Shown here: in pieces, positions 16,736 through 47,307 of the stretch
Layout of the letters: every line of letters begins with the position of its first letter
How positions within the stretch are numbered: the first letter of the stretch is position 1
From: Chiloscyllium plagiosum
Taxonomy: Eukaryota
Assembly: GCF_004010195.1 (NCBI RefSeq)
Contig: NC_057718.1
Location: forward strand, 45,919,240-45,968,669
Reading direction: 5' to 3'
DNA length: 49,430 nt
The notes under the pieces: model-generated
Told to the model about the DNA's origin: nothing
Database searches by the model: none
The model's input: only the letters and a program-made list of their open reading frames with translations
Position numbers and translations under genes: made by a program

Positions 16736-16990
16736 AATGGAAGCCTTATATGAGACAGAAAAGAGATGGAGTGGTTTAGAGAACTTAGTCATGGGGAGAG
16801 GGAAATTCTGATCTGTGAAACGGGTTTAAGTATTTAGTGGACATCATGATGACTGCTGCTTCCTATCTCCTAGATTTGGAGGAAGGCTGGGCGTACTTGA
16901 TCTCTGGATGATTTTCCTTCTTTCACCTTTTGACCATTTTTTCTTGTGGCTGTCAGTTGAAACCTGGCAGTAGAGCCCAGTACACAAGAG

Positions 16991-17413
16991 GAGAAAGTGA
17001 GGACTGCAGATGCTGGAGATCAGAGCTGAAAATGTGTTGCTGGAAAAGCGCAGCAGGTCAGGCAGCATCCAAGGAGCAGGAGAATCGACGTTTCGGGCAT
17101 AAGCCTCACTGATTTCAAGGTAGGCACTTCTGGTTTTGCAGTATGCAACATACCACAATAGATTTGCATCCTTTGGATGAGTCATACTTTAATACTTCTC
17201 TATGACACTGAAATTGTTGCTTGAAAAGAATGTTCATTTGCTCTGTAATGAATTGCATTGCTTTGTGTGCTTGATTGTACTTGCATTCTGCTGACACCTG
17301 TGGGTTCTGCAATGATTCTTCATTCCTGAAGAAGGGCTTATGCCCGAAACGTCGATTCTCCTGCTCCTTGGATGCTGCCTGACCTGCTGCGCTTTTCCAG
17401 CAACACATTTTCA
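16991..17413. mobile_element. PLE family A inverted termini enclosing a 212-bp inverted copy of 18232-18443
   Basis: TSD CCCAGT(A/G)CACAAGAG at 16976-16990 and 17415-17429; the overlapping parts of the arms are identical; intact HHR core at 17326-17353. Confidence 0.92.
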
Positions 17414-18231
17414 TCCCAGTGCACAAGAGAAAAGTGACGAGTTCTACCATTAGAATGAGATGGTATTGTGGGATCTTCTCATTCTCCAGCAAACTCCATT
17501 CTTCTCTTTCAAGCTCTATTGTTTAATTTTCCACACTTCAGACCTGTCAGAATTCTCTCATCTATCAAGAGCCAATGATACATATGTAATGAGCTTCACT
17601 GCAGGTAAATGGGATGTGGAATGTATAAAATGGAGAACAGAACTCCTGCCCCATCAGACATGCAGCACAAGGAAAAAAATCCCCTTTTTAAATATTATGT
17701 CTGACCTGTCAAAGAACAATGTCTATGGATGTTCAGACATTTGTGGGAGATAATGATATGAGTGTGACTTTAACTGCATTTCTTATGGCTGTGAAAGTGA
17801 TAGCAGTCATTAATTTTCTCAATCTTATTCACTTCAATCCCCAAATGATTCTTTGCATTGGCAATGGCCACTAGCAATGATTAAATGCCCGATACCTCAT
17901 TCTAGAAACCCTATCCTTTTAGAACAAAGTGACAAGAAACAGCAACAATCCAATGCTCTTGCTGGCTTCCCCACTGTTTTGCCAAATATATGCATGTACA
18001 GATCGTTACTGATCATCAAATTAATGGTGCATATCATCTATGCAAGCTTTCATTCCTTAATTTGCAGGTGATCTGTGCTAAAAAAAAATAACTTTGTGGC
18101 GAAGGCAGGGTCAACTCTGACTGCTTCATCCTTACCAGTTTAGTGCGCTTGGATGCTTAAATGGGCTACTTGGTTGCAAGGCTGTCTTTAGGGAAATTAT
18201 TACTATGGTTCGCAACCATGACTCATAACCC

Positions 18232-18443
18232 CATTGCAGAACCCACAGGTGTCAGCAGAATGCAAGTACAATCAAGCACACAAAGCAATGCAATTCATTA
18301 CAGAGCAAATGAACATTCTTTTCAAGCAACAATTTCAGTGTCATAGAGAAGTATTAAAGTATGACTCATCCAAAGGATGCAAATCTATTGTGGTATGTTG
18401 CATAGTGCAAAACCAGAAGTGCCTACCTTGAAATCAGTGAGGC
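18232..18443 (+). repeat. Donor of the inverted copy at 17103-17314
   Basis: One mismatch seen in 212 bp; the ORF track shows the near-identical peptide on opposite strands. Confidence 0.95.
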
Positions 18444-19075
18444 ATGGCCCTGAGCCATTGTTAAGGATGAAACAGAACTCCAATAGCCTGCAAATGCTGA
18501 GCCAATCCTGGCACAGGAGTTTTGCAAAAATCTAATTCGTACACATTTCAGCTAAGGGAATTTCCCATGGTAATGTGATTATAGTCATCTACTTGTCCTA
18601 CCCTTTCGAGGTTACTATGTATACTTAGCAATTCATCACTGCTAACATAGATAGAGGTATAAAAGGGAAATAAAGAAAGAGAAAAAGAGATTTGGCTATG
18701 CCCATTGGAAAAGCTGTCTCTGTTTAAAAAGAGAGATTAAAAATGCACAAATTCTAAACAAATGTAAAATACATATAGAGTGAGTGTTCTATTACACATG
18801 CTGGATGAAATTCAACGTAGGAATGAAAGTCAAGTGGATGATGATTATTCAGCAGCCCTTTTTACACCCTGTTGGATCACTGCTTATTTTGTGCTGATCA
18901 AATATCACCTCTAAATTATTTGTTGGGGAAGGTGGAAACAATGGTTTTGATTCCATATTATTTGACTGGATGTATCCTGTGGACTATTTCTGAAACCAAT
19001 TAGTTTCAGAACATCACCCTTGTGGCAATGGTGCCTGTTACAAGCTCAGAGGACAACCTGTACTGTTTCTTTATA

Positions 19076-25250: not shown

Positions 25251-26827
25251 CATCACTGTCACCATTCCCTTAGTAATCCATTGCAATGAACCCCATGCCC
25301 AGTCTTAATTTTCCCACTTCTATCTGGAATCCACTTCTGTGCCCTGACTATTACTAAGCAAACCTCCAGAACTGTCTCGACAGAACAGCCACGATTAACC
25401 ACAGCCCTTTGCCAGACTAATGTCCCAATAGCACCTCAACAGACCTGTAATATTGAATATTGCTGAGTATCGCACGGTTAACCCACTTGGTTTAAAATTT
25501 AAACAAAGTCTGGCAATTAGCTGTCAATTGTCATTGATTATTGCATATCCTTTGGCTAAACTTCTACCAATCAGAATCCACATTTGCAAACCAATCTTGG
25601 TTAGTTTCTATGAAATGAATGTTGGTTTCCTCTTGAATTGGTATTCCTGTAAATTCTCCTGATGAGTGCAAGGTGAACAATTTTCACAAAATGTGTATTT
25701 TTTCAGCATAATTCAAGTTCTGTATTACCACTTGACTATTTATATATCTTTGAATTGGTTGCGCTTGACCTGCAGAACTGACTGTGGCCCAAATCCCAAA
25801 TTGCAAGTATACAGATCCCCAGACTCTGGGAATGCTTGACTGATAGCGGCCAGCCATTGCATTGGCATTAGATGAGCCACTTGACTGAAAGTTATTGTAT
25901 TCCCTGATTGACCATAGTCTCCCTTCAACCCTACAAATAAATCCTCCCTTTCAACTTTCAGTCATGGTCACTTGCTTCAAGCAAATATTTGCCAAGTTAA
26001 CTACTGGCCCATAATGCAGATATGATGTTAATGCAGTAAGATGCCAGACAGTGACATGTGTATCCTGTGAACTGTTCAATATTCTCCAACTTAACAAGCA
26101 GCCTGCCTCTCCCTCTTCTCCAAAAAAGTAACATAAATCACAGATACTGACAGCTTGTAACAGAGCACTGAAGACCCTGTGCTCTAAGAAAGCAATGTGA
26201 GCCACGCAGAGGTGGGCACCTGGTAAGTCAGTGCTGAATTCAGTGAGAGTGCACTCAGAAAGCAATGTGAGGTATACAGAGGCTGAGAGGCTCCAAGTAA
26301 ACATGATGTGAGTCATAACATGCAGATGCATGAGATGCATGTGTATCTCTCTTCATGTAAGATCATCTGCAGAAGCATGTAACTGATAGGTGTTGCAGAG
26401 CAACAAAGGGAATGAAGAAGGGTTATGCGAGTTGAATTTGGGGCAGACATGATGATGTCGTGAAGCTGGCGGTTTGCTGATGTGTCGGTGCAGATTTGCG
26501 TGAATGAACTGTCCAGCAGAAAGGTATCCATGGACCATGCAGGGATGTAGTTGTAAAGAAGCACTTGGATGATAACCAAGTTTACCCAGTTTACCCAGCT
26601 ACTCCATCACTGTATTCCTGCATGCTCCACAAGTACCAGTCTCTTCCACCTTCATGTACATAAGAGAAATTATCAAACTGGCAGCCTCAGAATATCACCC
26701 CAGTGCTTTTGGACCAACTCTCACATCACAGCAGCCCCCTTACAGACCTTACTTCAGAGCTTACAGTCAGTTAGGCCTTGCATGCTTCTACCTTGTGTTT
26801 TTGCACACGTGGACACAAATGTATGTT

Positions 26828-26911
26828 GAAAATGTGTTGCTGGAAAAGCGCAGCAGGTCAGGCAGCATCCAAGGAACAGGAGAATCGACGTTTCGGGCAT
26901 AAGCCCTGTGA
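26828..26911 (-). mobile_element. Solo 84-bp PLE family A fragment
   Basis: 13-bp TSD ACAAATGTATGTT at 26815-26827 and 26912-26924. Confidence 0.92.
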
Positions 26912-28849
26912 ACAAATGTATGTTCACAGGATGACGCATATGTCTTCTAGCTTGCTTTCTTAGAGTTGGCATTTACTATGTGGCTGGTGGCATTTTGCAG
27001 CTTGCATTTCTGTTCAGTGCAAGCTGGCAGCTTATAGCAGTTGCAAGTCCTGAACAGTCAAGAGGCTGGATATGTTTCTGTATGCATGGTGCTATCTCAG
27101 TGTTACACTTACAACACATACCAGCAGCTTCCACAACCATCACACTGCATGTGCTTCAACCAAATGTCCATGTCTGAAAGTCAAAGTCCTTCTGGAGTCG
27201 AGGGGGACTATGTCATTTGAGGATTGCTACCATGCTCAGTGCAGGGGCTCATCCTATCTCAATCCAATGGGTTTGCCACAGTCAGGCATATCATTGGTCT
27301 TACTAGAGTTCAGAAGTCAATGCCTTTGAAGACCAGGAACTGGGTAATGGTCAGTTCTGTAGGTCTAGTGCAACTAGTTCATGGATCACAGGAATGTCAG
27401 GTGGGCGCTATGGTGACATCCATCTGAGGCTACATCATGTGCGGTCAGGACTGTTCTCCCAGGTCAGTCCAGGAGCTGGGCCAAGATCAGTCCTGTGGGT
27501 CAAGGTATTAATGGTCACAGGGTGCATCAGGAGGTCTCCATACACTCCTGTGGAAAACGAGGTGCTCAAGTTGGGTGTTTGGCTCATTGAACTGGGTTAT
27601 TGAGGGAATTATAATGGTCATAGGGACAATTCCAGAGAGAAGGGTGGAGTCTCATAGTGCACAGGAGGGAACTTTTAAACAGTTTTCAATCAACCTAGCC
27701 TCCATATGAGGAGAATGAATAGCCAACAAATACATGGCCATTTGCAAAGGCATTAAAAGTATTATAAAGGGGCTGAATGGAAAGGGGAGGAGGCTCAAAG
27801 TGACTAAAAGTGACATAGGGCTGTAACACAACAGAAAATGTGAAGGTTGGGGAGATCATTAATTGTCTCTCACAGGGACACAAAATTCAACCAGAGCATA
27901 ACCTCTGTTCTCCATTTTGAATATAGCCCTTTAATCGTAACTATGCCATCATCGCATCAAAGTTAGCTACCCAGAAAAAGAGACAAAGTAGCTGCTGCTG
28001 CATGTAGAGTAAGTGGAGTAAGTCTTTCTCTTCAGTAGTGTAGTATGATGATTGTGTGTGAGTCACTGTGTGGGGCAATTGTATGAATCATGCATCCACT
28101 GGTTCAGTAACGCCACCCGTCTGCCATTAAATTGGATTCAATTGAAAAGTCATTCTTTCGGCAACTATAGACATTGCAAATTGAGACCTCAAGCAATCAA
28201 TATCATGAAATACTTTGCATTAATTAGCCCTGCCATCATGTCAGATAGACAATGCTATGCAGAAGCACACTTTACCACTTCACCCGACTTTACCATTTCT
28301 GCATTGATTTTCTTATCAGACATCGGAAAACCATGCTTTGGAACTGCAACATTTCACACCAAACTGCATGTATGTGACATTCATGGGTGATTTTTGTTCT
28401 TGGGTGGAGACGCAGTCACAGCAGAGAAGTGCTTGCATTTAACTCACCCAATGTAGCGTTTGTAATTTGGTTCAGCAACATTTATCTGCATTGGGTTTCA
28501 GAGCTCAGAGTTTCAAATCAAGGCATGGCATCAGCCTCCTTGTAAAGATAAAGCCTCCATGTCACAATGTGTGAGTCCATAAGATGTTGTTTAATTGTGC
28601 TTGATGTTAGGAATCTGGAAAAGTCCAGCTGACATGCTGTTCTGTTTCTGACATCTTCCACAGATTATCTGCTCCCTGAATTGAGATGAAACCAGCTCTC
28701 AGAAGTTACTTTGTGGCTTTGTTAACTATGAGATTCCAGCATTAAAGAAGACTTCAATTGGAAGACCAGCAACAAGAGGAGCCTCCAGAGGCTGTCATAC
28801 TGGATGGAGAGAGACAGCTGAAGATCAACCAAGAGGAAGATGAGAGTGA

Positions 28850-29400
28850 CCACCACCTGAATATTCAGGTTTCGCTGTCATTATCTACTGCTGTCAGAAA
28901 CACAATGTAGGCACAGACTGAGGATACTGTAGGTCATCATCACCAAGCTGTCATCAGTTGGAGTAGAACTTGTACTTGGAGGGAACAGAATGCCATCCCA
29001 TTCTGTACCTGTCAAGGGCATAGTCGCCTTGAATGTTTATGCCAGTAGCTTATTCTAGTAGTAACTGGACACTTGTGTGGCATCACGGTCCAAAAATGCA
29101 TCCAGGATGTCACTGGTTCCATTTTCTCCAGATTACATCAGTTTATATCCTTCTCTTGTGGAGAATCAAACAGTGGAATTCTTTACCATCAGCAGAAATG
29201 GGGGACTGACAGCATTCCTCTAAGGATAAGGACATTGATGCAGAGGCACATGCAAGCGTTCTTGGTAGAGCTATACATCTTTGAGCTTGCGAGGCCAGAC
29301 AGAACATCATTGAATTCTGCTTTCAGGAAGAATAAGCTGGGCTTTGATTTCCTTTCATTGTGTTACTTCCTGTAGGTTATACAGCAATGAGTCCCTGGTC
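28850..29400 (+). pseudogene. PIF/Harbinger (HARBI1-like) transposase remnant
   Basis: Translations VPVKGIVALNVYAS and TGHLCGITVQKCIQDVTGSIFSRLHQFISF fit the N-terminal HTH region of Harbinger transposases; stops and frameshifts present. Confidence 0.65.
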
Positions 29401-44160: not shown

Positions 44161-44346
44161 TTGTTTTCCAAGAAGAAATGCATGTAAAAATAACTGTTTG
44201 TGATCCTTAGAGGAGGGTGAATTTACAATATAATGCGTTATGCAGAGTATTGAAATTTTTAAATTAATTTATTTTGAAATTTTGGTTATGCATATTAATT
44301 CTTAATGTTAGAGGGAGAGAAGGAAATCTGTTAATTGTATATTAAT

Positions 44347-45315
44347 TGTTGTAGTTCTGTTCGCCGAGCTGGGAATTTGTGTTGCAGACATTTTGTCCCC
44401 TGTCTAGGTGACATCTTCAGTGCTTGTGACCCTCCTGTGAAGCGCCTCTGTGATCTTTCCTCCGGCATTTGTAGTCGTTTGAATCTGCCGCTTCCGGTTG
44501 TCAGTTTCAGCTGTCCGTTGCAGTGGTTGATATATTGGGTCTAGGTCAATGTGCATATTGATTGAATCTGTGGATGAGTGTCATGCCTCTAGGAATTCCC
44601 TGGCTGTTCTCTGTTTGGCTTGTCCTATAATAGTAGTGTTGTCCCAGTCGAATTCATGTTGCTTGTCGTCTGTGTGTGTGGCTACTAAGGATAGCTGGTC
44701 GTGTCGTTCATGGCTAGTTGGTGTTCATGGATGCAGATCGTTAGCTGTCTTCCTGTTTGTCCTATGTAGTGTTTTGTACAGTCCTTGCATGGGATTTTGT
44801 ACACTACATTTTGTTCAATGTAGTGTACAAAATCCCATGCAAGGACTGTACAAAACACTACATAGGACAAACAGGAAGACAGCTAACGATCCGCATCCAT
44901 GAACACCAACTAGCCACGAACGACACTTCCAGCTATCCTTAGTAACCACACACACAGATGACAAGCAACATGAATTCGACTGGGACAACACTACTATTAT
45001 AGGACAAGCCAAACAGAGAACAGCCAGGGAATTCCTAGAGGCCTGGAACTCATCCACAGATTCAATCAATAAGCATGTCGATCTGGACCCGATATACCGA
45101 CACTGCAACTGACAGCTGGAACTGACAACTGGAAGCGGCAGATTCAAACCACTATAAATGCCGGAGGAAACATCACAGAAGCACTTCACAGGAGGCTTCC
45201 AAGCACTGAGGATGTCACCTAGACAGGGGACAAAATGTCTGCAACACAAATTCCCAGCTCGGCGAACAGAACCACAACAACGAGCACCCGAGCTACAAAT
45301 CTTCTCACAAACTTT
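44347..45315. mobile_element. PLE family B fold-back (palindromic) insertion encoding a GIY-YIG endonuclease fragment
   Basis: NVVYKIPCKDCTKHYIGQTGR GIY-YIG motif on both strands; arms 44347-44810 and 44817-45280; TSD TATTAATTGT at 44340-44349 and 45319-45328. Confidence 0.93.
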
Positions 45316-45929: not shown

Positions 45930-47020
45930 CTTTAGGCTCTTGTTCCGAGTCCGGACTCACTGGTCATTGAGAACATCCTTCTTCCATTTTCTCTGTCCGG
46001 TTCTGTTAGAATTTTATAAATTGAACTCCAGTGAATATCATCCGAAATGATCCAATTTCTTTTTAGACATCCTCTGACCATCCCAGGAATCAGTCTGGTG
46101 ACTTTGTTGCATTCCCTCCAAAGTCAGAACATCCTGATTCAAATAAGGAGACCGACCTGCACACAATACTCCAAGTCTGATCCCACCAAGGCCCTGCACA
46201 ATTCCAGCAAGACATCCCTGCTCCTATTCTTGAATCTTCTCACTATGAAGGCCAACATGCCTTTCGCTTTCATTACCACTTGCTGAATCTGCACACTTGG
46301 CTTCAGTGACTGGTGTATAAGGACACCCAGGTCTCATGGTACTTCTCCCTTTCCTAATCTATCGGCATGCAGATAATAATCTTTCTTCCTGTTTTTTATA
46401 TACCAAAGCAGATAACCTCACATTTATCGGCCATGTTTTGCTCATTCAATTGACTTGTCCACACTATACTGAAGTATCTCTGCATCCTCCTCAGTTCACT
46501 CTCCACCCTGCTTTGTGTTGTCTGCAAACTTGAAGATATTATGTTTACTCACCTCATCTAAATCTTTAATAGAGAACATGAATAGTTGGGGTCCAAGCAC
46601 TGATCCCTGCACTACCCCACTAGTCACTGCCTGCCATTTTGAAAAAGACCTGTTTATTTGTATTTCGTTGTTTCTTGTCTGCCAGCCACTTCTGTATTCA
46701 AGTCAGAGTGCTACCTGATTCCATGCACTTTAACCTTACAAGCTAATATCCTATATGGAACCTTATCAAAAGACTTCTGAGTAAACCACATCCACGAGCT
46801 CCTCCTTGACAATTCTACTAGTTATAGCCTCAAAAAATGCCAGTAGATTCATCAAGCACAATTTGCTTTTTGTAAATCCATGCTGACTCTGTCTGATCCT
46901 GCCATTGTTTTCCAAGTGTTTTTCTATTAGTTTATTTATAATAGACTGTAGTATTTCAGTTTCTATCAGTTAGGATATCAGTTTCTATGCTGTCTTATTT
47001 TCTGTCTAACTCCTTTTTTT

Positions 47021-47307
47021 CAAAGTCAGAAATCACACAACACCAGCTTATAGCCCAACAGGTTTATTTGAAATCACAGGTTTTTGGAGCACTGCCAAGG
47101 GAGAAGTACCATGAGACCTGGGTGTCCTTATACACCAGTCACTGAAGCCAAGTGTGCAGATTCAGCAAGTGGTAATGAAAGCGAAAGGCATGTTGGCCTT
47201 CATAGTGAGAAGATTCAAGAATAGGAGCAGGGATGTCTTGCTGGAATTGTGCAGCACTGTGACTTCCGACTTTGCCCACCCCAGTCCAACACAGGAACTT
47301 CCACATC
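47021..47307. mobile_element. PLE family C inverted termini enclosing a 158-bp inverted copy of 46194-46351
   Basis: Left arm CAAAGTCAGAAATCACA... versus right arm TGTGACTTCCGACTTTG + tail; TSD TCC(T6-7)CAAA at 47011-47024 and 47306-47318. Confidence 0.82.

Follow-up and report, generated by a model that had tools for sequence, protein, structure and literature searches.

A Penelope-like insertion of the Neptune type on contig NC_057718.1 of Chiloscyllium plagiosum carries, between its two arms, a 209-bp inverted copy of neighboring DNA, and we consider it probable that this DNA was captured from the flank during integration, at a stage when the cDNA ends had yet to be joined to each other. 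All positions refer to the window, the whole 49,430-nucleotide stretch of the contig that was analyzed.

Structure and age of the insertion

The insertion consists of a tailed antisense arm, the cargo and a tail-less sense arm, flanked by 15-bp TSDs. It has no ORF, and its parts are as follows.

16976..16990, + strand: left TSD, 15 bp; its final 3 nt (GAG) also match the RNA end
16991..17026, - strand: 36-nt tail, confined to the left arm
16991..17105, - strand: left arm, antisense 3' end of the pLTR of a Neptune-type Penelope-like family; stops in hammerhead stem II
17103..17105, + strand: GCC microhomology, common to the left arm and the donor
17106..17314, - strand: cargo, 209-bp inverted copy of 18232-18440
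17315..17320, + strand: non-standard right-arm start, ATTCTT; makes a 7-bp hairpin with the arm
17321..17413, + strand: right arm, sense, tail-less pLTR end; 79 bp identical to the left arm
17415..17429, + strand: right TSD, one substitution at 17421; preceded by 1 extra base (17414)
18232..18443, + strand: donor, 0.8-1.0 kb from the element on its tail-less side

A previous sequence-only reading of this DNA had described a 212-bp inverted copy trapped between inverted element ends. The match does have that length: the sequence at 17103-17314 equals 18232-18443 read on the opposite strand, apart from a single mismatch (17141/18405). The cargo proper, however, is only 209 bp, as 3 nt of the match are microhomology. 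The cargo and donor copies lie 917 bp apart, with 3 nt of microhomology at the left junction, 0 nt at the right and no poly(A). Two details of that reading held up: the left arm stops at 17105 in hammerhead stem II with an exact GCC microhomology to the donor, and TTCCTGAAGAAG is present in the right arm and absent from the left.

In a relative, a contig joins 16982 to 17422, which fixes the TSD limits at 16976-16990 and 17415-17429 and represents the empty site, with the entire element absent; a second relative fits the same pattern. Consistent with the proposal that the event was recent, the cargo differs from the donor at 1/209 positions, the arms from each other at 0/79 and the TSDs at 1/15, so that all three appear equally young, and the left arm is 98-99% identical to its nearest copies. 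The claim that local DNA served as the template was also borne out, as the cargo matches flank 0.8-1.0 kb away and no third copy was found: a search of the 3.56-Gb genome with the 209-bp core, in which common words were skipped, gave two matches, both of them the locus's own copies.

The donor belongs to a decayed Harbinger-type DDE transposase (18100-18445; PF13359, E 2e-5). No close DNA copy of this region was found elsewhere, and no protein relative of the donor frame was found in a protein search. The locus is without evident function: what it captured is a fragment of a dead transposase, and this fragment has not spread.

The element family and its hammerhead motif

A longer family copy (L171) has a YIDD reverse transcriptase and a GIY-YIG-like region. 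Its second frame contains CNCKKCKPC, which fits the CX2-5CxxC linker between the reverse transcriptase and endonuclease that PMC8557442 gives, in the part available to us, as a criterion for Neptune; the assignment to the Neptune type follows from this linker criterion, with no tree built. A search gave 40 longer homologues, many with PF00078 or PF01541, the best being 79% identical to a bamboo-shark protein, while the frameshifted L171 piece had no match in Pfam and a GIY-YIG family search gave one weak match. Judged by these sequences, the family is an EN+ Penelope-like element of the Neptune type. An upstream walk toward a full element ended in a LINE, and a genome search with the DNA of the arm, with common words skipped, returned nothing.

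The insertion at 16976-17429 has the features described for EN+ Penelope-like insertions in the accessible portions of PMC3846280, PMC8557442 and PMC11167929, namely inverted pLTRs, a 30-40-nt tail at one end only and a TSD. Like the pLTRs described in PMC4209133, again as far as its available text goes, it contains a putative minimal hammerhead motif (17326-17353), which by the criteria given there has the core, an extra base before helix II and a palindromic 15.2-16.2. An Rfam search found no hammerhead.

Two-ended insertion is the norm for the family

Our survey covered 1.85 Mb of DNA in eight contigs (1.79 Mb without N), which was scanned with four arm profiles. It yielded 547 arms, in 175 inverted pairs and 197 singles, and exactly one arm was tailed in 151 of the 175 inverted pairs, a count that includes some mis-pairings. 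This pattern is expected from the two adjacent start sites and the extension of both cut strands seen in vitro in PMC11167929, whose available text describes the post-priming steps of Penelope integration as unvalidated. TSDs were detected in 67 of the 100 elements examined and were 14-15 nt long in 40 of the 67. The arms of most short pairs meet without anything between them, at short stretches of homology within the hammerhead.

Arm starts (L184-L207) often bear one or two additional 7-nt units (TTCATTC). These additions resemble repeat addition via realignment at a cDNA end, which deserves mention as the reverse transcriptases of PLEs are telomerase-related.

Capture is more probable at integration than afterward

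From the features observed directly at this locus (the TSD, the relative's empty site, the tailed and tail-less arms, the cargo and the letters of its junctions), we infer the following course of events. An element protein would cut both strands 15 nt apart, and both 3' ends would prime reverse transcription, each from one of two neighboring start sites, so that one arm is tailed and the other tail-less. Usually, the cDNA ends would anneal at short hammerhead homologies and leave a cargo-less palindrome. Here, the right cDNA end may first have gained a few nucleotides; one of the cDNA ends would then have copied flank ~0.9 kb away by the synthesis-dependent repair that also produces local duplications elsewhere in this genome, after which the ends would have joined, with GCC acting as primer or as final anneal.

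The likeliest rival is that a cargo-less palindrome formed first and that local DNA was used to repair a later break close to its centre, a reading that we regard as considerably less probable. The right-arm start is informative here. Together with its preceding purine, this start has 24 genome matches, representing 23 elements, many of them without a left arm, and its recurrence in these elements indicates that it is made at integration; under later repair, a filler would have to recreate this common start by chance. Two of 22 other elements with the same start (L190 and L207) adjoin a local copy whose age matches that of the arm, compared with a background of ~0.08% per junction (P 1e-4; 2/52 and P 7e-4 when a second start motif is added). 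The second motif itself adjoined a local copy in 0 of 30 cases, most of which are direct palindromes. As L207 is one-armed, no palindrome existed there to break later. The local copy at L199 proved to be element-internal and was removed as a third candidate, and TTCTTCA was rejected as a natural subfamily letter: among the 22 sampled copies with a full upstream part, 0 carry it, and the right-arm start is thus not the natural upstream sequence.

On the side of later repair, the right-arm start resembles the centre of 361 exact cargo-less palindromes, and the junction also reads as this common centre with 3 nt of homology, a 1-nt loss and a 1-nt filler. Such a combination of 3-nt homology, loss and filler is the commonest class in Table 1 of PMC2671141. 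A rough calculation from the 361 palindromes nevertheless gives only ~0.001 later repairs with this exact junction expected genome-wide, or 0.09 if the palindromes were 100-fold more fragile. So few chance mimics, taken together with the evidence from the right-arm start, favor capture during integration.

Comparison of cargo and arm ages shows that both routes are used. The two ages agree at this locus, C2:92521, C12:10700 and L190, and the cargo of single-armed L207 (2/96) agrees with the distance of its arm to the nearest copies. At C12:69734, in contrast, the cargo is 0.9% and the arms 6.5% diverged (P 5e-5), making the cargo younger. A second event in the window, in another Penelope family, is similar.

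47016..47306, strand not assigned: second event; its 47097-47254 part (158 bp) repeats 46194-46351 in inverted orientation

This copy is 100% identical to 46194-46351, with the next best genome match at 85%, while its cargo-donor and arm-arm divergences are 0/158 and 2/17 (P 0.009), so the cargo is probably later than its element. (In the same element, 7 nt of the left arm recur after the cargo.) Agreement at some loci and disagreement at C12:69734, and probably at 47097, therefore indicate that cargo can be acquired both at integration and later. That two junction cargoes seem younger than their arms also means that later events can hit arm junctions exactly (C12:69734, probably 47097), which counts against capture at integration and in favor of later repair.

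Homology at the junctions and the direction of copying

The sequence-only reading had proposed a homology-guided jump of the left arm onto local DNA. Homology at the left junction is indeed beyond chance: within 2.5 kb, 102 of 9,950 positions have a 3-nt microhomology, and just 7 combine it with an equally good imperfect match, although a better-matching site at 18694 was unused. The jump itself is one of two equal readings. The copied stretch contains no GGC, the first one after 18232 being at 18441, so copying could just as well have begun at the right arm and ended where a homology first became usable. In that case, the cDNA of the right arm would have started the copy without homology, with GCC as the final join. 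Which arm did the copying is thus evenly balanced.

That reading had further noted that the target resembles the element end. It does so at this site, which ranks at the top of 67 sites (background P ~0.002), but the resemblance was not supported as a mechanism: as a family rule, target mimicry was rejected because the 67 sites were at background (mean 3.5 versus 3.4).

A jump of the reverse transcriptase from the element RNA to a nascent host transcript of the donor, joined to the left arm at GCC, would explain why the right junction has no microhomology, as is typical of template jumps. We consider this improbable, given that 214 non-repeat frames gave no host exon (a long intron is possible) and that copies of this size and spacing are also present outside Penelope elements. 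The frames matched nothing beyond the DDE fossil and, weakly, two DUF families, one of which (DUF4554, 28725-28877) was rejected as a host gene: it is probably due to chance, a genome-wide DUF4554 search having matched only another contig.

Alleles and read support

In two other conspecific animals, both outer junctions of the element were present. The sequence-only reading had suggested screening for an empty or a cargo-less allele; the relative's contig supplied the empty site, and no cargo-less allele was seen, though one may exist. At donor position 18405, the allele of two relatives and one conspecific is exactly that of the cargo, and the assembled donor allele was found in one read and one contig among the raw runs. 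The cargo holds the ancestral donor allele and is thus likely older than a substitution found in three other samples, which argues against later repair.

Among the runs and contigs examined, no read or contig spanned either cargo junction. Assemblers may prune short branches into high-copy repeats, and for this reason unbroken donor contigs in conspecific runs were set aside as evidence. In raw reads from three other animals (~1.6-fold), 1-2 fragments fell on the cargo/donor sequence, where a single copy should give ~2.6 and two copies 5.2; the resulting likelihood ratio of 3-7 against a fixed cargo comes from filtered records and from animals that may lack the element. These counts lean toward the absence of the cargo in the three animals, as later repair would have it.

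The lack of a junction-spanning read also fits an assembly artefact, in which gap filling placed local sequence into a palindrome. N gaps are frequent within the long inverted elements of this assembly, and heterozygosity at 18405 could yield the single mismatch. We nonetheless hold such an artefact to be about as improbable as a jump onto a host transcript. Junction overlaps of 3 and 0 nt would be too short for overlap-based joining, the right junction is a recurrent natural arm end, and 19 of 45 similar copies found in our survey are <90% identical, indicating that the process that makes them is biological.

Local duplications in the surrounding genome

An unbiased scan of the 1.79 Mb retained 45 distinct local duplications from 57 rows. 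The 12 rows removed or merged were repeats that were dispersed or satellite-like (1, 5 and 51), a PLE-internal row (12), near-identical large duplications (50 and 53) and pieces merged with others (26, 27, 34, 38, 46 and 54); the acceptor copy was identified for a minority of the non-PLE rows. The duplications are 32-567 bp long (median 130) and 0.3-4.3 kb apart (median 1.06), 24 being inverted and 21 direct.

The implied uniqueness of the capture was overstated, as such captures recur and most local copies here (38/45) lie outside Penelope elements, an observation that also lends weight to later repair. The 38 resemble published repair-mediated duplications. The remaining 7 lie inside Penelope elements, whose share without this locus is 6/44 against 5.9% of bases (P 0.04) and rises to 5/19 among young duplications (P 0.004). 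The excess is found at arm junctions, with three more copies against 0.28 expected, while copies within an arm (3) match the background expectation of 2.6. A fourth junction copy (C2:114912), whose TSD is inverted, lay under the minimum distance of the scan.

In seven of eight two-armed cases, the donor is on the tail-less side (this locus, 47097, C12:69734, C2:92521, C2:114912, L190 and C12:10700; the exception is C9a:13728), a post hoc count that is small and includes later events. At single-armed L207 and at one further element beyond the window, the donor is on the armless side.

At 21-25 local duplications per Mb, the density is far above the published values of 0.08-0.65 per Mb of TE DNA, which were obtained by a different method and are not directly comparable. 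Slow substitution or frequent breakage could account for the high density.

One element of unusual form lies at C2 ~50,114,900-50,116,250 (L115). Its two arms are on the same strand, its TSD is inverted, and 568 bp of the flank are present in it as an inverted copy. It is either a fold-back of the tail-less end at integration or an assembly error.

Relation to known systems and implications

The event is a variant of a known repair process, and the survey statistics are the new part. The repair-mediated duplications of PMC2671141 (Pace, Sen, Batzer and Feschotte, 2009), in the part available, are 50-619 bp long (mean 162), lie inside an interrupted transposon and derive from a single-copy donor within 5 kb, with a peak at ~1.2 kb; microhomology, a small deletion and filler accompany them. 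The present copy is likewise at least 50 bp long, with a single other copy, a donor within 5 kb and microhomology at a breakpoint. In the accessible text of that paper, however, the break is taken to follow the transposon and no shark is surveyed, whereas here the break is likely that of the transposon's own integration.

The templated insertions of L1 (10.1101/2024.08.27.596794, PMC11702581), as far as these sources were available, also contain genomic DNA from near the site, copied while the element integrates (templates <250 bp). As in those, the copy lies inside one TSD, although integration timing is here a matter of inference; for L1, the template is typically no more than 15 bp away from the site, in contrast to 0.8-1.0 kb and a two-armed PLE host in our case. 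At R2 snap-back 5' junctions (PMC11371274, available portion), the 3' end of the cDNA is extended, with cDNA or target DNA close by as the template, before it is joined, as we propose here, but those were engineered insertions into rDNA and had a single primed end. Unrelated DNA caught between solo pLTRs of rotifer PLEs is described in PMC3846280, where, within the text available, no origin in the neighboring flank is established for the captured DNA and neither a frequency nor a side bias is given. In the mostly open-access literature that we searched, we came across no description of PLEs capturing flank over kilobase distances or of such duplications in sharks; supplements may hold closer cases.

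The value of the survey lies in two-ended insertion as the norm, the excess of captures at junctions, the possible side bias and the duplication density, and a captured piece of flank preserves a record of the end that remained open and of the distance over which the flank could be reached. More tentatively, and with more doubt than confidence, we suggest that a two-ended open break, primed at each end from one of the two start sites, is normal for these elements, that the flank on the tail-less side is exposed for at least 1 kb, that ~1% of insertions (~9% of those with extended ends) copy flank, and that breaks made by Penelope elements may help explain a duplication density tens-fold above published vertebrate values.

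Three other elements in the window are recorded here. A single tail-less arm at 26826-26925, with a 13-bp TSD, carries at its inner end 9 nt of the adjoining flank in inverted orientation. A two-armed element at 1232-2778 holds ~700 bp of LINE-like DNA, for which no local source was found in the DNA analyzed (best distant match, 81%). Finally, a third Penelope family is represented at 44344-45315 by a large palindrome, whose 285-bp arms enclose a 6-nt centre.
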